Shown piece after piece: positions 4,189-29,816 of a stretch of 32,066 nt of DNA (the first letter of the stretch is position 1; every line of letters begins with the position of its first letter). Origin of the DNA: Desulfobulbaceae bacterium. Its GTDB lineage: Bacteria; Desulfobacterota; Desulfobulbia; Desulfobulbales; DAOVSZ01. The position numbers and the translations under genes were made by a program. The notes below the pieces were generated by a model that saw nothing but the letters and a program-made list of their open reading frames with translations, was not told where the DNA came from and did no database searches. The stretch is taken from NCBI GenBank assembly GCA_030627725.1, contig DAOVSZ010000002.1, positions 1 through 32,066 on the forward strand, given 5' to 3'.

Positions 4189-4968
4189 ATGATGGAAAAT
4201 CTCCCTTCCATAATCTCTTTTATTTTCGGGGCCGTTGTCGGCAGTTTCCTGAATGTTGTCATTTTAAGACTTCCGGAAGAAGAAAAATCAATCGTCTTCC
4301 CCCCCTCCCACTGCCCATACTGCAAAAAAAATATCAACTGGTATGACAATATTCCACTCATCAGTTTTCTGCTTCTGCGGGGCGCTTGCCGAAGCTGCAG
4401 AAAACCGATTTCCTGGCAATATCCTCTGGTCGAACTTTCTATGGCCCTGCTGTCTCTCTTTTTGTATAAAAATTTTTCATTCTCCGTTCCATTCGGAATC
4501 TATTTTGTCTTTTCTGCCGCTCTCCTTGCGATAATCTTCATTGATTTCAGACATCAGATCATACCGGACCTCATCAGCCTGCCAGGGATTATTGCAGGAT
4601 TTGCCTTTTCTTTTATCAACCCTTTTGTGTCTTGGCAGGATTCCGGATTAGGGATTCTGCTCGGAGGAGGCAGCCTCTACGCCGTGGCAATAGGGTATTA
4701 CCTGATAGCCAGAAGGGACGGCATGGGCGGCGGTGACATAAAACTCCTCGGAATGATCGGCGGCTTCCTGGGCTGGCAATCTCTGCCATTTGTCATCTTC
4801 AGCAGTTCGCTGACCGGCGCTGTTGCGGGCATCGGGGCAATGATCAAGCAGGGGAAAGGTGGAAAAACAGTCATTCCGTTCGGACCGTTTCTTGCGCTCG
4901 GGAGTTTGCTCTATCTCTTTTTTCAGCCTGAAATCATCTCTTACACCAAAATGTTGCTGTTTCCCTGA
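4189..4968 (+). CDS. pilD: Prepilin peptidase / N-methyltransferase (A24 family)
   Basis: 259 aa. The N-terminal Cys-rich segment CPYC..(17)..CRSC sits within '..NIPLISFLLLRGACRSC..'. The protein has multiple TM segments and the A24-typical GMGGGDIKLLGMIGGFLGW block. Confidence 0.9.
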   Translation: MMENLPSIISFIFGAVVGSFLNVVILRLPEEEKSIVFPPSHCPYCKKNINWYDNIPLISFLLLRGACRSCRKPISWQYPLVELSMALLSLFLYKNFSFSVPFGIYFVFSAALLAIIFIDFRHQIIPDLISLPGIIAGFAFSFINPFVSWQDSGLGILLGGGSLYAVAIGYYLIARRDGMGGGDIKLLGMIGGFLGWQSLPFVIFSSSLTGAVAGIGAMIKQGKGGKTVIPFGPFLALGSLLYLFFQPEIISYTKMLLFP

Positions 4969-4992
4969 CAAGGCAAAACCTTGTATTTTTTT
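4968..4992 (+). terminator. Weak intrinsic terminator after pilD
   Basis: ACAAGG (4968-4973), loop CAAAA, CCTTGT (4979-4984), then A and TTTTTTT (4986-4992). Confidence 0.4.
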
Positions 4993-5063
4993 CATCCACC
5001 ACCATTTTTTTTAACACACTTAAATTTCTTTACAGAAAGACAAAACAATAATATTCTAGAATT

Positions 5064-6440
5064 ATGATAAAAACTGAAAACAAAAAAGTCCTGATCGTCG
5101 ATGACGATCAGGTCCTGCAGGAACTTCTGTCAAAACTTCTGGCCGACAACGGGTATGTTACCGATCTGGCCGACAACGGGCAGGAGGCCTTGGAAAAGGC
5201 TGAGAAAAAGGCATACGATCATATCATAACCGATATCAATATGCCGGTGATGGACGGGCTTGCTCTTCTGGAAAATCTGCGGCAAAAAGATATCCGGGCC
5301 AGCGTGATCGTTATCTCGGCCCATTCCGACATGGAAAACGTTGTCAAGGCTGTCAAATTAGGGGCCAGTGACTTTATTGCCAAACCTTTTCAGTCTGAAG
5401 AGGAGATCCTGCTCACCTTGAAAAAGGTTGAGGAAAAGGATTCTTTGCTCAAGGAAAATTTCCGGCTCAGACAAGAGGTTGAAGATAAGTATACCTTTTC
5501 AAAAATTGTCGCCAAAAGCGGCAGCATGTTGTCAATATTCAAGACCATAGAAAAAATTGCCGACTACAAGACTTCAGTGCTCATCACCGGCGAGAGCGGC
5601 ACGGGTAAGGAACTCATTGCCAAGGCAATCCACTATAACAGCAACCGGAAACACCACGCTCTTATAGACATAAATTGCGGCGGCATTCCGGAGACGTTGC
5701 TTGAGAGTGAACTCTTCGGATACGAAAAAGGGGCCTTTACCGATGCCTACCGCAGCAAAAAAGGTCTCTTTGTTGAGGCGGACGGAGGGACATTATTTTT
5801 AGATGAAATGGGAGAACTGCCCCTGGCTCTTCAGGTGAAGCTTCTCCGCGCCCTTCAGGAAGAAGAAATCAGACCTCTGGGCGGTTCCAATTCAGTCAAG
5901 GTGGATGTTCGCATCATTGCCGCGACCGCCAGAAATCTCCGAGAGGAGGTATCAAAAGGGACCTTCAGAGAAGACCTGTATTACCGTGTAAACGTTCTCA
6001 CTATTGAAATTCCACCTCTCCGCGACCGAAGAGAAGATATTCCACTCCTTATTGACCATTTTATAAAAAAATATAATACCCGACTTGGAATCGACATTGA
6101 TAAGATCGACGGCAAATGCATGCAGATTTTGCTTGAGTATCCATGGCCGGGAAATGTCCGGGAACTTGAAAACATCATTGAACGGTGCATGGCACTTGCC
6201 GACCATAATGTGCTCACCGCAGAAAATCTTCCGCCGGATATATTCCGCAAGACGGAAGTGAATGCTGAAGGTTTTCAGAGCGCGGGGCTTTCTATAAAGA
6301 AAAACGCAAAAGTCCTGGAACGGCAGCTGATTTCCAAGGCACTTGAGGAGACGAAAGGAAATAAGACAAAGGCGGCAGAGATCCTTGAAATCAGTCTGCC
6401 TGCACTTTTATACAAGATAAAGGAGTACAAAATCGGTTGA
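5064..6440 (+). CDS. Sigma-54-dependent response regulator (NtrC family: REC + AAA+ + Fis-type HTH)
   Basis: 458 aa. The REC domain has VLIVDDD and the acceptor context ITDINMP. The AAA+ domain has Walker A GESGTGKE, Walker B LFLDE and the sigma-54 contact loop EKGAFTDA (a variant of GAFTGA). The C-terminus is an HTH, KTKAAEILEISLPALLYKIKEY. Confidence 0.9.
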   Translation: MIKTENKKVLIVDDDQVLQELLSKLLADNGYVTDLADNGQEALEKAEKKAYDHIITDINMPVMDGLALLENLRQKDIRASVIVISAHSDMENVVKAVKLGASDFIAKPFQSEEEILLTLKKVEEKDSLLKENFRLRQEVEDKYTFSKIVAKSGSMLSIFKTIEKIADYKTSVLITGESGTGKELIAKAIHYNSNRKHHALIDINCGGIPETLLESELFGYEKGAFTDAYRSKKGLFVEADGGTLFLDEMGELPLALQVKLLRALQEEEIRPLGGSNSVKVDVRIIAATARNLREEVSKGTFREDLYYRVNVLTIEIPPLRDRREDIPLLIDHFIKKYNTRLGIDIDKIDGKCMQILLEYPWPGNVRELENIIERCMALADHNVLTAENLPPDIFRKTEVNAEGFQSAGLSIKKNAKVLERQLISKALEETKGNKTKAAEILEISLPALLYKIKEYKIG

Positions 6441-6464
6441 ACAACTCTCAAACCGGAAAAGGCT

Positions 6465-7406
6465 ATGCATAATCGTGACCAATTACTCGACCACCTGAGC
6501 ATCGGGGTAGTTGTGCTTGATTCGTTCCTCGAGATTGAATTCTGGAACAAATGGATGGAGGAGCATAGTCTGCTGGACCGTTCAGAAGTACTTGGAAAAC
6601 CTATTTATGACCTCTTCCCCTCTCTGATCCATAAAGAATTTACAAAAAAAGCCCGCGAATCTTTCCGAAACGGAACTCCTGCCTTTTTCACAAATAAGGC
6701 AAACCAGTATCTCTTTCCCTTTCCTTCAAGCCGCTCCCTTCTCTCTAACAAGCTGTCAAATATGCAGCAGACGGTTATTCTCTCGCCACTCAAGGACAAA
6801 ATGGGAGAAACCGTCCGCCTTCTGGTCTCAGTCTTTGACATAACTGACTGGATAACAAACCAGCACCAGCTGATGGAGTCAAAAGAAAAGCTCGAAAAAC
6901 TGAGCCAGATTGACGAATTGACCGGTATTCAGAACCGAAGAAGCCTGATGGAAAAACTCAAGATGGAACTGTGCATTCACGCCCGCAAAAAGAGGCCGCT
7001 GGCCCTGGCAATGATCGACATTGACCACTTTAAAAAAATCAATGACACGTATGGTCATCAATGCGGTGATACGGTTCTGATCAAGATGGCAAATCTTTTT
7101 GCTGAAAGCTTAAGGGGATATGACACCTTAGGCAGGTATGGCGGAGAGGAATTCGTGATCATCCTGCCTGAGGCAACACCTGAAGAAGCTCAACGTATCT
7201 GCGAACGTATACGCCAAAACGTTGAAAAAAAAGTTTTCTATTACGAAAAGGAAACAATACAAATGACCATCAGCATCGGTGTTGCCTTCAGTGACGCACA
7301 CTCTTTTCCCGAGGCGGAAGAGCTTCTCAAAAAGGCGGATGACAGCCTGTATCAGGCAAAAAACAACGGCAGAAACCAAGTGGTTGTCTTTGTAGAAGAG
7401 GGTTAA
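6465..7406 (+). CDS. PAS-GGDEF diguanylate cyclase with an intact I-site
   Basis: 313 aa. The N-terminus is PAS-like ([21 protein letters not shown]). The active site is GGEEF. RGYD (RxxD) lies five residues upstream of [19 protein letters not shown] is typical of GGDEF domains. Confidence 0.9.
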
Positions 7407-24373: not shown

Positions 24374-26311
24374 TCACTCCACCGCCTCAATTTCAACCCG
24401 GCGATTGGTTTTTCTGCCCTCAGAGGTTTTATTATCTGCAATGGGATTTTCAGGCCCCAGGCCCCGGGATCTTATTCTCGAAGAACCGACACCTTTGCCA
24501 ACAAGATATCCTTTAACAATATTCGCCCGAAATCCGGAAAGACGCTGATTGTAGTTCAATACCCCGGTGTTATCCGTATACCCCGTTATAATGATTCTGA
24601 GATGAGGATGTTGGTCCATCAGCTCGGCAAGCCGGTTCAGAGTTGCAAATGCTTCATTTGTAGGATAGTTCGTATTAAAATTGAACTGGATAATAATTTT
24701 TGAAAAATCATAAGAAGGAGGAGGTCCGGATTCTGTTTTCACAGAGTCTCCGGTTTTAAGCCTTTTTTCTCCCAATGCACTCCCCTCTTCAGGAGGCATG
24801 GCAACGGGCATATCATCGACGCCTTGCTGCGGTTCTTCCTGCTGAAATGATGCAAGATTTTGTCGGTCTCGCGAAGAACGCGAGACCGACGCGTTAACCG
24901 TCTCTATCTTATTGAAATCATTGGAGACAAATCTAGCGTTTTCGACTTTTTTCCCGCCTGCATTTTTTTGACCGATCTCAACAGGATCGGCAGATTCCTG
25001 CATCATTTCAGGTGCGGCAGCAGGAGAGCTCTGCCGATCGGAAGCCGCCTCTTCCGGAGGGGAAAGAGGAGTAGATTCTTTGTATATGCCCAAGGTTTGC
25101 GCATAATCAGTAACACGTATAATCAACGTATCCCGTGTGTCCGCATCATAGACGAGATATCCTCCTGACAAAAGAACGAGAAGAACACCCAGAACAAGAA
25201 ATCTGCCCATCCCCAAACGCAAAGGCCCCTGGTCCACATCGAAATTCGACAATGCTTCCGGACCCTGCTCTTTCCGTTCGATTTCTCCCTCAGCATGGGC
25301 GGCACCGGGCTCTTTTTCAGAAGCGCTCCCACTATCATGCCGGTCATTCTGAACAGACGGCGCACGCTCTTGAAAAGCAGGTTGCAGGACCTGAGCATTC
25401 CGTGGTTCTCCGGCCGCCTCCAGGGCAGCAGAACGAGCCTTCCCGACTCCGGGTCGTCCAGCTTGCCTGTCGGAGATTCCGTTCTTCTTCACTGCTCTCC
25501 TGGCCGGCCTGAATATCTCCAGTTCTTCCGCACATTCCTCCACAATCTCAGGGGTTATTGTCCGCACGTCCTCCACATAGCCGGTCAACAGCGAACGATC
25601 ACAAAGCACATTGATGCGGCGGGGGTATCCATGGGTACAGGAAAAAAGAGCGCCAACAGCCTCTTTGGAGAAAATTCTCTTCTCTGTTCCCGCGGTCTTC
25701 AGTCGATAGCTGATATACTCGGCGATTTCCTCCTCCGTCAGGGGATCAATATTAAAATTAACTGTTATCCTCTGACGGATCGCCCTGTTCCTCTCTTCCA
25801 GGATGAGGTCGTTGAACTCATGCTGACCGACGAAAAAGATATTTATCAGCTTGCTCTCCATCCTTTCAAGATTGGAGAGGAGACGAATTTCTTCAAGAAG
25901 TTCGGAGGTGAGACGCTGCGCCTCGTCAATGATAAGAAGGACCTTCTTGCCGTTGGCGTGCGCGTTGTGAAGAAACTTACTGAAATGAACGAGAAAGGAT
26001 CCCTTGTTTGAAAACTCCCTGTTTATGTCAAAGCTGGCGGCAATAAAATTAAAAAGATCCAGATGATCCAGGCCCGGGTCCGGCACCGTAGCGACGATAA
26101 CCTCTTTACCCAGACTGTTCAAAAGGGCGTTGATGAGCGTTGTCTTTCCCGTCCCCACATCACCGGTGAGCAGAAGGAATCCCATGTTGCCCAGGATTCC
26201 GTATTTGAGCGTGGCAAGGGCCTCCTGGTGTTTTTCACCAAGCCACAGAAACTTAGGGTCCGTGCTTATCTCAAATGGTTTTATTTTTAAGTTGAAGTGG
26301 GAAAGATACAT
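24374..26311 (-). CDS. ExeA/MshM-like AAA+ ATPase fused through one TM helix to a periplasmic OmpA-like peptidoglycan-binding domain
   Basis: 645 aa. The N-terminal ~270 aa have Walker A LTGDVGTGKTT and Walker B LLIIDEAQ, resembling ExeA/GspA. A Pro/Glu/Ser-rich linker follows, then a TM segment FLVLGVLLVLLSGGYLVY. The C-terminus is OmpA_C-like: ITGYTDNTG..YNQRLS..RA..V..YL...G......GLGPENPIA........NRRVEIE. Confidence 0.8.
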   Translation of the reverse strand: MYLSHFNLKIKPFEISTDPKFLWLGEKHQEALATLKYGILGNMGFLLLTGDVGTGKTTLINALLNSLGKEVIVATVPDPGLDHLDLFNFIAASFDINREFSNKGSFLVHFSKFLHNAHANGKKVLLIIDEAQRLTSELLEEIRLLSNLERMESKLINIFFVGQHEFNDLILEERNRAIRQRITVNFNIDPLTEEEIAEYISYRLKTAGTEKRIFSKEAVGALFSCTHGYPRRINVLCDRSLLTGYVEDVRTITPEIVEECAEELEIFRPARRAVKKNGISDRQAGRPGVGKARSAALEAAGEPRNAQVLQPAFQERAPSVQNDRHDSGSASEKEPGAAHAEGEIERKEQGPEALSNFDVDQGPLRLGMGRFLVLGVLLVLLSGGYLVYDADTRDTLIIRVTDYAQTLGIYKESTPLSPPEEAASDRQSSPAAAPEMMQESADPVEIGQKNAGGKKVENARFVSNDFNKIETVNASVSRSSRDRQNLASFQQEEPQQGVDDMPVAMPPEEGSALGEKRLKTGDSVKTESGPPPSYDFSKIIIQFNFNTNYPTNEAFATLNRLAELMDQHPHLRIIITGYTDNTGVLNYNQRLSGFRANIVKGYLVGKGVGSSRIRSRGLGPENPIADNKTSEGRKTNRRVEIEAVE

Positions 26312-26319
26312 AGAAATTC

Positions 26320-27039
26320 TTATTTTCTGCCATATTCCTTTAATGCAGAAAGAAAGGGACCGAACAGTTCCTCATTTTCCCGCATCCCTTTCCGAAGGAT
26401 AAGATCCATGTGGCCGAGTTCAGTATCATTCACGACGAGATTGGCGCTGTACGCAAGTGCCTCAAGATCGTAAAGGGTATGAAATTCCGGCCCGACAAGA
26501 ACGTAATACATATATCTCCGCTTGGACATGGCAAGACCGCTTACATAGGTGTGAAAGGTAGACTTCTCAAGACCTCCCTCCTCTAGTATCGTATGGTAAA
26601 CGACCGCGGCATAGTTCACAAAACGCATCTTTTCAATCGCGTCTTCTGCTGATTCCGCATAAATCGACTGATAGCCGATCCCCTCAAGCGCCTCACTTAC
26701 ATGATGTCTCTCAGGACTATCATTCATGAGGATAAGGACCATTGGAACATCTTCAATAACGTCCTTTTCCTCAAAGGCCCCGCTGGAAAGCCAGCCAAGG
26801 TCAGGCGCTTTGGGTGGGGCTACGTGTGTGTCCTGGGCCAAAGCTGCAGCGGGAGGGGGTGATGGCGTTTCACCGGCGGATTTTCCATCAGCATCAAGTT
26901 CAATCGGCTGCTGGCAGTTGGGGCAACCCAATTTCAGAAATTTTCCCGGCTGCAGGGCTACCAGGGCGTTCTCAACTTTTGCAAGCTGGGCTTCATTCAA
27001 ATTAAGGTCTTTTTTGCAATGCGGGCACTGGGATAACAT
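26320..27039 (-). CDS. Zinc-ribbon protein with a C-terminal receiver-like (pseudo-REC) domain
   Basis: 239 aa. The N-terminus has CPHC..(32)..CPNC. A Pro-rich linker follows. The (beta-alpha)5-like segment MVLILMNDSPE..AEDAIEKM..YAAVVYHT lacks an Asp at the expected phospho-acceptor position. It is tightly packed between the PilT-like and ExeA-like genes (gaps of 21 and 8 nt). Confidence 0.6.
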   Translation of the reverse strand: MLSQCPHCKKDLNLNEAQLAKVENALVALQPGKFLKLGCPNCQQPIELDADGKSAGETPSPPPAAALAQDTHVAPPKAPDLGWLSSGAFEEKDVIEDVPMVLILMNDSPERHHVSEALEGIGYQSIYAESAEDAIEKMRFVNYAAVVYHTILEEGGLEKSTFHTYVSGLAMSKRRYMYYVLVGPEFHTLYDLEALAYSANLVVNDTELGHMDLILRKGMRENEELFGPFLSALKEYGRK

Positions 27040-27060
27040 CCTCTGTTCCTCCGAGATTTT

Positions 27061-28230
27061 CTAGAAATAATCTTCCTCTTCTTCAGGCTCCATTTTCAAC
27101 CCGGTGATGCCGGTCGTTGATTCACCTCTGGAAGCTTTCAGCTGGTCAAGACCACGGCCGATGGCGCTCTTTCTGGATCCATACGACATGGCGGTCTCTT
27201 CAGTGACAATCCCCTCTGAATACAACTGCAGAATATGCTGGTCAAACGTCTGCATGGCCTGGGCGGAACCGCTTTCGATCATCTCATAGAACGTTTTTCC
27301 CTCACTTTCACCGTGGAGTATGGCATCCTTGATTCGAAGGTTCATACCCATGACTTCAATTGCCGCCACCCGGCCGCCGCCGACCTTGGGCATCAGTCTC
27401 TGGCCGACAATCCAGCGGATGGTGTCTACCAGACGGTTCCGGATCTGGGCCTGCTCCTCCTGGTCAAAAAAACCGAGAATACGATTGATTGTCTGGCCTG
27501 CGTCAACAGTATGCAGGGTGCTAAAAACCAGATGCCCTGTCTCAGCCGCGGAAAGCCCGATCTCCATGGTTTCACGGTCACGCATCTCACCGACCAGAAT
27601 TACCTTGGGCGCCTGCCTGAGAGCGGCCCTGAGGCCTGAGGCAAAGGAATCAAAGTCATTTCCCAGCTCCCTCTGGTTGAATGTCGCCTTTTTATGGGGA
27701 TGCACGAACTCGATGGGGTCTTCCAGGGTCACAACATGGACAGCATTATCCAGGTTGATTCGGTCCAGAAGAGCGGCAAGGGTTGTTGATTTACCTGAAC
27801 CGGTGGCGCCTGTGACCAGGACAATACCGTTTAACTCCTTGGCCATTTTTCGAAAAACCTTCGGCATATTCAATTGTTCAAGAGTGGGGATGGTTGTTTC
27901 CAGTTTTCTGAGAATGGTGGTAAGATTCATCTTCTGAGAAAAAATATTGACCCTGAAACGCGCTTTTCTTTCCAGCCAGTAGGAAAGATCGCAGGACCCT
28001 CTCGAGACAAGATCTTCCAGCAGGCGTTTGTTGCCGCCAATGATATTCAACGCAAAAAGCTCTGACTGAAACGGTGTCAGTTCCTTTACCGGAGGCCGCA
28101 CGGAAACGGGCTGCAACACCCCTGAAGACTCCACCTGAAGAGGTTTTCCCACAGTAATATTCAGATCGGAGACATTCCCATAGGTCTCAAGCATACAGGA
28201 AATCCAATAGTCAATATCCGGTTGTTTCAT
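27061..28230 (-). CDS. PilT/PilU-family type IV pilus retraction-type ATPase
   Basis: 389 aa from the ATG at 28230 (MKQPDIDYW..), with GGGAGGA 5-6 nt upstream. The ORF opens at 28299. It has Walker A GATGSGKSTT, Walker B ILVGEMRD and the His box LVFSTLHT. The PilT AIRNLIRE motif is degenerate (LRIKDAILHGE). About 40 aa of acidic C-terminal tail are extra. Confidence 0.85.
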   Translation of the reverse strand: MKQPDIDYWISCMLETYGNVSDLNITVGKPLQVESSGVLQPVSVRPPVKELTPFQSELFALNIIGGNKRLLEDLVSRGSCDLSYWLERKARFRVNIFSQKMNLTTILRKLETTIPTLEQLNMPKVFRKMAKELNGIVLVTGATGSGKSTTLAALLDRINLDNAVHVVTLEDPIEFVHPHKKATFNQRELGNDFDSFASGLRAALRQAPKVILVGEMRDRETMEIGLSAAETGHLVFSTLHTVDAGQTINRILGFFDQEEQAQIRNRLVDTIRWIVGQRLMPKVGGGRVAAIEVMGMNLRIKDAILHGESEGKTFYEMIESGSAQAMQTFDQHILQLYSEGIVTEETAMSYGSRKSAIGRGLDQLKASRGESTTGITGLKMEPEEEEDYF

Positions 28231-28330
28231 TGCTGTCCTCCCTGATTCCGGTCTGGCTCTGACCGATATACGAGTCGGCGCGACTACGCCGCTATGCATA
28301 AAAAAACATCACCTAATATTACCAGATCAT

Positions 28331-28370: not shown

Positions 28371-29597
28371 TCAGAAATGTTGGCGACTCTTTTTTTTCAC
28401 AAAAAAATAAAGCCGGCCGGGCTCTTTCATCAGGCCTGCCGCATGCCCGGCAGAGGCGCCGTTTCCCAGGAAGATATCAATTCGCCCTGCTCCCTTAATG
28501 GCAGACCCGCTGTCCTGATTCAAGACAAACCTTGAAAATGGCTTCATGCCGACAGGCCTTCCCTGATCATCCATCGCAGGGATTTTGGTCTGCAGAAACC
28601 CAAGGGCGCCGGCAGGAAAGCACCTCTGATCAAGGGCCACTGAGCGGCCGGCGGTCAGGTGCTCTCCGATACTGCCGACAGGGCCGCTGGAACCGAAAAA
28701 GCCTCCATCATCACGCCACTGAAAAAAGATAAACCGGGCGTTGTGATGGAAGATTTCCTCCTGCTCGTCCGGATGATCTTTCAAGTACCGGATAATCCGA
28801 GGCATGTCCACTTCCTCAAGGCTCATTTTACCTCTTGCAACAAGCAGGCGGCCGATGCTGCTGTATTCCAGACCGTTATCTCCCGCATACCCGACCCCTC
28901 TTATGGCGCCGGAAGGAAGTCTGATTCGCCCGGAGCCCTGAATATGGAGAATAAACGCATCAATCGGGTCTTCAAGAAAAACGAGTTCCTGCCCATGAAG
29001 TTTGCCTTCCTTCTCTATCCGGGCCCGTGACCAGTAGGGAACCTGCTTGCCGGCTTCCATCCTGTATACCTTTTTGGGATGTTTTCCCGACGCGGCGAGT
29101 TTGACCAGATCAGATGGCACTGTATAGAGCGGGTACAGATAGGGAGGCCTTTTCTCCAGACTTCCGTTTAACACAGGTTCGTAGTAGCCGGTTACGAGCA
29201 CCTCGCCGGAATCCGCAGCGCCGACTGCCCGATAAATATCAAAATTCTCATAAATCAGCCGGGTGAGCCCCACATGAGAATGCCTTTCCTGCAAAAGATA
29301 ACTGAAAATAAACAGGGAGTTTTTCAAGTGGGCTGCTGTAAAATCGTTCTCTCCAAAGTGGAAGGACCGGTCTTCAGGAATCTTTGACAGATAATTCAGG
29401 CTGCGGGCAATACCGATTTTGAGAGATACAAGAGAAAAATTATCCCGAAACACAGGGCGCTTCGTTTCCGGAATTTTACGTAACCCAGGTTCACTGCAGC
29501 CAAAGGCCTGCATACCTTGAAACGGCCGTATGAAAAAAAGGCAGGAATAAAATAAAATGAAAATAAATGCGGTCCTTACGATCAGCCTGATACGCAT
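28371..29597 (-). CDS. mltA: Membrane-bound lytic murein transglycosylase A
   Basis: The MltA-domain and 3D-domain pattern includes VTGYYEP, ..FFxxxG.. and the C-terminal QDSGSAIKGAGRIDIFLGNG. The hydrophobic N-terminus begins at the ATG at 29597 (MRIRLIVRTAFIFILF). The ORF opens at a GTG at 29645 with no SD, so the start is uncertain. Confidence 0.85.
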   Translation of the reverse strand: MRIRLIVRTAFIFILFYSCLFFIRPFQGMQAFGCSEPGLRKIPETKRPVFRDNFSLVSLKIGIARSLNYLSKIPEDRSFHFGENDFTAAHLKNSLFIFSYLLQERHSHVGLTRLIYENFDIYRAVGAADSGEVLVTGYYEPVLNGSLEKRPPYLYPLYTVPSDLVKLAASGKHPKKVYRMEAGKQVPYWSRARIEKEGKLHGQELVFLEDPIDAFILHIQGSGRIRLPSGAIRGVGYAGDNGLEYSSIGRLLVARGKMSLEEVDMPRIIRYLKDHPDEQEEIFHHNARFIFFQWRDDGGFFGSSGPVGSIGEHLTAGRSVALDQRCFPAGALGFLQTKIPAMDDQGRPVGMKPFSRFVLNQDSGSAIKGAGRIDIFLGNGASAGHAAGLMKEPGRLYFFVKKKSRQHF

Positions 29598-29816
29598 GAT
29601 TGGCGCCCGTAATTCATCTAACTTGTTTATATTAAAAAAGATCACCGGAAAAGGATTATAAAGCCTGCGCTGTTATTTCTCAAATGAAAATAATCCCGCA
29701 TAAACGGGGTCGAACAAATTTCTGGAATTACGAATTATAATCCACTACACTTAAAAAAATAAGGAATGGGAAATAAATAACTTGAACCCAATGAGCTGAG
29801 GAATTGCGTTTTTTCC

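Follow-up and report, generated by a model that had tools for sequence, protein, structure and literature searches.

A PilT/PilU-family ATPase and its zinc-ribbon pseudo-receiver partner in Desulfobacterota: a putative PilU-like accessory motor beside an ExeA-OmpA protein

The characterised ATPases of the PilT family, PilT and PilU, retract type IV pili, as is also reflected in the NCBIfam name of TIGR01420. What, then, could be the role of such an ATPase in the 32,066-nucleotide (nt) stretch of contig DAOVSZ010000002.1 of a Desulfobulbaceae bacterium (hereafter the window, meaning the whole stretch analysed), where a scan of the larger open reading frames (ORFs) showed no pilin, secretin, PilB or PilC? 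The ORF list gives four head-to-tail genes on the minus strand, i.e., mltA, the PilT-like gene (product PilT'), a gene for a protein of 239 amino acids (aa; ZnREC) and a gene for a 645-aa protein (ExeA-OmpA). The initial annotation described the last three as an orphan operon, and proposed a peptidoglycan-anchored, envelope-spanning unit acting perhaps in trans. The reading favoured here, which we consider rather probable, is that a PilU-like accessory retraction ATPase, together with a dedicated pseudo-receiver adaptor, acts in trans on pilus machines and is encoded beside a lineage-specific secretin-assembly factor. The features concerned are:

27061..28230, minus strand: PilT', paralogue of the PilT/PilU-family hexameric ATPases, 389 aa (P0003); assigned by TIGR01420, with an ATG supported by a ribosome-binding site
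27064..27156, minus strand: C-terminal extension of PilT', a motif common to about 60 orthologues
26320..27039, minus strand: ZnREC, zinc ribbon, disordered Pro-rich linker and pseudo-receiver, 239 aa (P0002); predicted with AlphaFold2 and Foldseek
26890..27039, minus strand: predicted zinc-ribbon domain of ZnREC, residues 1-50, CPHC...CPNC; invariant Cys and Zn_ribbon_4 matches
26335..26748, minus strand: predicted pseudo-receiver (CheY fold) of ZnREC, residues 98-235; predicted local distance difference test (pLDDT) score 90-96, Foldseek and profile matches
24374..26311, minus strand: ExeA-OmpA, ExeA/GspA-family AAA+ protein with a single transmembrane segment and a periplasmic OmpA_C domain, 645 aa (P0001); Pfam/NCBIfam and hydropathy
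25508..26311, minus strand: cytoplasmic AAA+ module of ExeA-OmpA, residues 1-268; AAA_22 at 90 bits
25145..25213, minus strand: predicted transmembrane segment of ExeA-OmpA, residues about 367-389; Kyte-Doolittle
24401..24685, minus strand: OmpA_C-type, predicted peptidoglycan-binding domain of ExeA-OmpA, residues 543-637; Pfam OmpA at 62.9 bits

The conserved unit at this locus is PilT' plus ZnREC. In a survey of the order Desulfobulbales with a ZnREC profile, 80 loci were recovered, about 63 of them with upstream DNA and about 75 with downstream DNA, and PilT' (65-79% identity) was located directly upstream of ZnREC in all of the approximately 63. At the genome level, ZnREC homologues were detected in 35 of the 41 genomes of the order, which represent 17 families (36 carry the pair in the adjacency count), and in 83 of 301 genomes surveyed across the phylum Desulfobacterota. 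Adjacency was tested in 45 genomes of the phylum, and in about 40 of them a PilT' orthologue (48-69% identity) was directly upstream of ZnREC; most of these had a second, canonical-like PilT (37-45% identity) directly upstream of PilT'. Identities of PilT' orthologues adjoining ZnREC across the phylum were 56-79%. This pilT-pilT'-ZnREC layout was read from the coordinates of matches and from two loci with gene calls, the metagenomic contigs L102 and L103, in which pilT (360 aa), pilT' (394-396 aa) and ZnREC (240-242 aa) lie 5-36 nt apart as a compact operon with other pilus genes not nearby.

The pair may thus ancestrally be the tail of a pilT-pilT'-ZnREC operon, and this position makes it most likely that PilT' is a PilU-like accessory retraction motor, serving type IVa pilus machines whose genes are located elsewhere. 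In Desulfobulbales, canonical pilT would have moved away (it is on contig C44 in the present genome) and mltA is found upstream of the pair instead. Since the pair is the tail of that operon in other Desulfobacterota, what the window contains is part of a retraction-ATPase locus that has been displaced.

The association of the two proteins is also seen in natural fusions. In protein P0164, a PilT' (56% identity to P0003) and a receiver-like domain (49% identity to residues 70-238 of P0002) form one chain, and the same fusion is present in the fragment P0153 and in a shared open frame of genome G201; the zinc ribbon is missing from these fusions. Natural fusions are classic evidence that two products, here those of PilT' and ZnREC, work together physically. 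ZnREC may accordingly bind PilT' as an adaptor or regulator of its recruitment, localisation or activity. Frames of 744-783 aa at PilT' in genomes G299 and G206 were also considered as fusions and rejected, the receiver match being in a different frame of 227-230 aa. Residues 1-190 of P0164 resemble, by eye, region 4 of an extracytoplasmic function (ECF) sigma factor; they were modelled as low-confidence helices and may be a gene-call merger.

The family assignment of PilT' made by the initial annotation was borne out. PilT' scored 365.1 bits against TIGR01420 (cut-off 319.1), and when aligned to solved PilT proteins its Walker A (GATGSGKST), Asp box (VTLEDPIEF), Walker B (ILVGEMRD) and His box (LVFSTLHT) were intact, so that by its motifs it is probably a catalytically intact member of the PilT/PilU family. 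The motif AIRNLIRE is important for PilT function. At this position PilT' has RIKDAILHG, a degenerate form that does not match the motif of canonical PilT. Against solved structures, PilT' scored 238-282 bits with PilT proteins and 234 bits with PilU (9n32). The extension RGLDxIKxxRGExTxxIxGLxM was conserved in about 60 PilT' orthologues and is followed by a charged tail, EPEEEEDYF in PilT', matching the acidic tail noted earlier; beyond the motif, the sequence of this tail varies, but it keeps its charge, and its last residue is often aromatic. PilT' would represent a Desulfobacterota-specific clade of the family. The longest ORF of the gene spans 27061-28299. The start was placed at 28230, in agreement with the end coordinate of the initial annotation, because the ATG there is preceded at a distance of 6 nt by a ribosome-binding site, GGGAGG, and agrees with the start of the homologues, MKQPxIDYW.

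ZnREC gave no above-threshold match in Pfam or NCBIfam. It has 571 close homologues and 865 representative clusters in a library of 1.8 billion proteins, and no informative name was attached to any family member seen. Its AlphaFold2 model (pLDDT 82) has a (beta-alpha)5 domain, attached by a disordered linker to a small ribbon. In the ribbon, C5, C8, C39 and C42 were invariant across 20 homologues, and Pfam Zn_ribbon_4 (PF13717; MJ0042/AgmX-type finger) was matched by 17 of 20 family members with a best E of 1e-10, P0002 alone scoring 19.6, below the 30.3 cut-off. The family profile also matched the zinc-ribbon domain of Myxococcus AgmX/GltJ (7zok; E 0.002). In three homologues, P0152, P0155 and P0161, the ribbon is replaced by a short N-terminal DAFxLFPDLM-like motif, followed by the same PPPDxSWL linker and pseudo-receiver.

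The top Foldseek matches of the C-terminal domain were CheY and the NtrC1 receivers (probability 1.00; template modelling score 0.72-0.78, target-normalised), and the family profile matched response regulators with an E of 4e-6. The gathering threshold of PF00072 was not reached: P0002 had no match, and the matches in 8 of 20 family members were weak (best E 0.003). According to the secondary-structure register of the AlphaFold2 model, the position of the acceptor Asp at the end of strand beta3 is His149; the acidic pair is ND, the Thr/Ser is Gly183 and the Lys is Asn204. Within the family, the acceptor position is occupied by His in Desulfobulbales and, outside this order, by Ser, Asn or His, and R174, R175, T188, A194, S198 and V202 are invariant, giving the signature RR...T...SxN. 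Because the CheY fold is kept while the phospho-acceptor and other receiver residues are lost, ZnREC is called a pseudo-receiver, which judging from the model cannot be phosphorylated. The zinc ribbon and the receiver-like fold without the acceptor Asp had both been recognised in the initial annotation. How multiple pilus retraction motors are coordinated and regulated is an active question, and the mode of action of PilU was clarified only recently. Paired across the phylum with a PilT paralogue and sometimes fused to it, ZnREC offers a concrete candidate for a new adaptor or regulator of motors among sulfate reducers and related bacteria, for which pili are of importance in attachment.

Of the approximately 63 Desulfobulbales loci, 41 have mltA upstream of the pair; acs, in divergent orientation, was found in 32. 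The separation from pilT and the position after mltA could possibly mean that the Desulfobulbales pair was repurposed from type IVa retraction, to power or regulate a machine similar to a type II secretion system (T2SS) or of the mannose-sensitive haemagglutinin (MSHA)-like kind, for DNA uptake, or for cell-wall remodelling with MltA. The degenerate AIRNLIRE would agree with this, and so would the other systems of the superfamily in the genome besides type IVa pili, which include an MshE-type ATPase and two T2SS-like clusters. However, PilT' of the order is still 56-69% identical to most orthologues in pilT-pilT'-ZnREC operons, the extension motif is kept within the order, and the characterised members of the family are pilus retraction motors. 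The linkage to mltA may moreover be plain synteny, since acs beside the pair is also conserved. Such repurposing is thus regarded as unlikely.

The third gene of the trio has a different history. ExeA-OmpA carries Pfam AAA_22 (residues 44-169) with Walker A GDVGTGKTT and Walker B LLIIDEAQ, and residues about 367-389 contain the sole 19-residue segment with a mean Kyte-Doolittle hydropathy above 1.6. The score for Pfam OmpA (PF00691) is well above its cut-off of 27.2, and GYTDxTG...NxxLSxxRA...NRRVEI aligns with the YiaD, OprF and Pal structures. The OmpA_C domain thus has the usual peptidoglycan-contact motif and is a predicted peptidoglycan binder. The bitopic combination of an ExeA/GspA-type AAA+ module and an OmpA-type domain was correctly described before. 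No match to PF01471 (PG_binding_1) or PF21327 (C39-like) was found in the Pfam scan, and the adjacent gene is plsY rather than GspB/ExeB. Identity as a PEP-CTERM/exosortase (XrtA) ATPase was considered and rejected, the score against TIGR03015 being 265 bits (cut-off 324.5); as a canonical GspA scored higher (284), this match indicates general ExeA-family similarity only.

More than 100 clusters share the architecture of ExeA-OmpA (55-68% identity in the AAA+ module), mostly from metagenome-assembled genomes of Desulfobacterales and Desulfobulbaceae, with records named, for example, 'AAA family ATPase', 'OmpA family protein' or 'general secretion pathway protein A' (GspA). One of these records, P0272, is a partial copy of 580 aa with 98% identity, deposited as 'MAG: AAA family ATPase, partial [Desulfobulbaceae bacterium]'. 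The neighbourhoods of three homologues were mutually different and all without PilT', with a PilZ gene, with an exosortase and two MshE-type ATPases, and with polysaccharide chain-length genes, respectively. ExeA of Aeromonas binds peptidoglycan and helps the assembly of the T2SS secretin. By analogy, ExeA-OmpA probably aids secretin assembly by linking the turnover of ATP in the cytoplasm with the binding of peptidoglycan; the secretin served could belong to a T2SS, a type IV pilus or an MSHA-type system. The ExeA-OmpA fusions appear to represent a large uncharacterised branch of secretin-assembly factors.

The surveys of 80 loci and 41 genomes led to the rejection of the trio as a conserved unit. 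Among the approximately 75 Desulfobulbales loci with downstream DNA, an ExeA-like gene followed the pair in three: L055, with an OmpA-type gene, and L029 and L042, with canonical GspA genes with C39-like domains (PG_binding_1 was detected in L029 only; the order there is mltA-pilT'-ZnREC-gspA-gspB). At the genome level this was the case in 7 of the 36 pair-carrying genomes, all in 3 of the 17 families: f1, represented in the genome set by the genome of the window alone (OmpA type), f12 with three genomes (OmpA type, 56-65% identity) and f7 with three genomes (GspA type, about 38-41%). The other genes downstream of the pair were unrelated, i.e., rpsA, cobalamin genes, and genes for a methyl-accepting chemotaxis protein, type VI secretion system (T6SS) ImpA and a methylase. 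Two of these are each known from a single relative, directly after ZnREC on the same strand: the T6SS ImpA/VasJ gene (L007, 1980-3560) and the gene of the chemotaxis protein, which has a CZB zinc-binding domain (L031, 10874-12499). In the PilT' tree, the row nearest to the window was L055, and L029 and L042 formed a separate clade (100/99 support) inside a group whose other 11 members are without the ExeA gene.

These data bear on the proposal that PilT', ZnREC and ExeA-OmpA, perhaps with MltA, are one envelope-spanning, peptidoglycan-anchored module that assembles or drives a secretin or pilus, the cytoplasmic ATPases being coupled to the cell wall through the bitopic ExeA-OmpA. The tight gaps of 21 and 8 nt, with intergenic gaps free of terminator-like sites, and the two cell-wall-related genes flanking the pair in the window are in line with it. 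An ExeA-family gene directly follows ZnREC in f1, f12 and f7, and the ExeA-adjacent loci occupy at least two separate places on the PilT' tree, with ExeA genes of two subfamilies (about 38% identity in one, 56-65% in the other) and different peptidoglycan-binding domains; as there are few ExeA-like genes per genome, repeated adjacency is unlikely by chance. On the other hand, about 72 of the 75 Desulfobulbales loci, 29 of the 36 ZnREC-carrying genomes of the order and both phylum-level loci inspected (L102 and L103) have no ExeA-like gene after the pair, the genes found there otherwise being unrelated, and the ExeA-OmpA fusions are a large family that occurs in contexts without PilT'. The adjacency could also be one ancestral synteny followed by a paralogue swap. 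The three-part unit of the initial annotation therefore largely fails by the refuting conditions set there, the genes not being co-conserved and the pair being the displaced tail of a pilT-pilT'-ZnREC locus, and a single module of this kind is rather doubtful. The tie of ExeA-OmpA to the pair is real but narrow (two clades, two ExeA subtypes), and a lineage-specific functional link is possible. That PilT', ZnREC, an ExeA-family protein and MltA form, in the lineage of the window and a few relatives, a dedicated ATP-driven, cell-wall-anchored module distinct from ordinary retraction is very unlikely; if true, it could take the form of a motor with the cell wall bearing its force via ExeA-OmpA, or of a machine that opens peptidoglycan and inserts secretins.

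Several results weigh against the favoured reading of a PilU-like motor with its adaptor beside a separate secretin-assembly factor. PilT' appears to be a separate clade and not an orthologue of proteobacterial PilU, because its score to the solved PilU is below those to the PilT structures, and its AIRNLIRE is degenerate. In the order of the window, the linkage of the pair is to mltA and no longer to pilT, and a shift of its function is therefore possible. For P0164, AlphaFold2 predicted both domains with confidence and a disordered linker between them (predicted template modelling score 0.45), the output carrying no information on inter-domain contacts. The fusions can be read equally well in two ways: the ATPase may be acted upon by the receiver-like domain, or the zinc ribbon may normally be the tether. 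Finally, since an ExeA-like gene after the pair is a recurrent feature of two clades, the two halves of the reading may not be independent.

Action in trans, as suggested earlier, is plausible, because machines of the required kind are encoded on other contigs of the genome (assembly 78% complete) and PilD is present in the window. A canonical PilT with AVRNLIRE, scoring 391 bits to Pseudomonas aeruginosa PilT, is encoded on contig C44. Four PilB/GspE-type ATPases were found on other contigs, two of them accompanied by pseudopilins and GspF/PilC platforms and one belonging to the MshE type, as well as two secretins; two T2SS-like clusters are present in the genome, and contig C136 carries a canonical GspA (AAA_22 plus PG_binding_1) followed by GspB. 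On C44 (L091, 6715-15433), the canonical pilT is located between a PHP-domain gene and comEC, with a CheA-type kinase and a sigma-54 response regulator nearby. Three further ExeA-family paralogues were recorded on C136 (L092), C285 (L093) and C300 (L094). Among the ExeA-family paralogues are a 331-aa AAA_22 protein directly after a secretin, in an MshL-MshM-like arrangement, and a 297-aa protein beside a ParA-like ATPase and a hybrid histidine kinase.

The gene order in the window agrees with that given in the initial annotation, the ORF coordinates confirming three minus-strand genes downstream of mltA with gaps of 21 nt between PilT' and ZnREC (27040-27060) and 8 nt between ZnREC and ExeA-OmpA (26312-26319). 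The surrounding features are:

28371..29645, minus strand: mltA, lytic murein transglycosylase A; Pfam MltA 185 bits, 3D 62 bits
23656..24261, minus strand: plsY, next same-strand gene, 112 nt downstream of ExeA-OmpA and outside the module; Pfam/NCBIfam
29655..29683, minus strand: best sigma-70-like promoter match, TTGAGA-17-TATAAT, upstream of mltA; 11/12 matches

The promoter match could drive the whole minus-strand gene string, which is only suggestive; the total of promoter-like sites in the region was no higher than in shuffled sequence. No terminator-like site was found in the intergenic gaps from mltA to plsY, in a scan that performed no better than on shuffled sequence, and the two weak terminator-like matches were both inside mltA. 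The longest ORF of mltA begins with GTG; Met17 (MRIRLIVRTAFIFILFYSC...) is the likely true start and is followed by a lipoprotein-like signal (ILFYSC). A small J-domain gene comes after plsY in the Pfam/NCBIfam scan, and plsY was absent from the equivalent position in all related loci surveyed. The prepilin peptidase gene pilD (A24_N_bact plus Peptidase_A24) is at 4189-4968, about 20 kb from the trio. It belongs to a pilus-related cluster on the plus strand (4189-7406), in which genes for a sigma-54 response regulator (REC, Sigma54_activat and HTH_8) and a PAS-GGDEF diguanylate cyclase come after it.

Compared with ExeA/GspA-ExeB/GspB of Aeromonas hydrophila and Vibrio, ExeA-OmpA shares the N-terminal AAA_22, the single transmembrane segment and the periplasmic peptidoglycan-binding domain. 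However, it ends in OmpA_C and not in PG_binding_1, no C39-like domain was detected, and there is no adjoining GspB.

The closest parallel to PilT' is found in the PilT-PilU tandems of type IVa pili (P. aeruginosa, Vibrio cholerae, Neisseria and Myxococcus). The gene for PilU lies downstream of pilT, and PilU depends on PilT for reaching the machine and touches it with a C-terminal extension (bioRxiv 10.1101/2025.10.30.685630; PMC13584747), docking beneath PilT via the C-terminus (bioRxiv 10.1101/2025.10.30.685630); the Myxococcus PilU was recently identified as MXAN_1995 (PMC13584747). PilT' resembles PilU in being a further hexameric ATPase of the PilT family, in having intact boxes but no AIRNLIRE, and in its clade-specific C-terminal extension; the orthologues of PilT' in most other Desulfobacterota are encoded directly downstream of a canonical pilT. 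As in the hosts of these tandems, a separate canonical PilT is kept in the genome of the window. Unlike PilU, PilT' is unlinked from pilT in the window and its order, with mltA upstream instead, and it comes nearly always together with a zinc-ribbon pseudo-receiver, to which it is sometimes fused. The literature search found no paper on a zinc-ribbon or pseudo-receiver partner of PilT or PilU, and a search on cable bacteria and PilT found nothing relevant.

For ZnREC, parallels can be drawn with known regulators of type IV pilus motors, i.e., PilG/PilH, FrzS and the cyanobacterial PATAN-REC proteins, with which it shares the CheY fold; the phospho-acceptor is missing as in FrzS. Its ribbon is of the same Zn_ribbon_4/AgmX type as that of Myxococcus GltJ/AgmX, and the zinc-ribbon domain of GltJ is a protein-binding switch for MglA-GTP (PMC11135422). 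What sets ZnREC apart from those regulators and from GltJ is the combination of its domains, the RR...T...SxN signature and the strict pairing, or even fusion, with a PilT paralogue.

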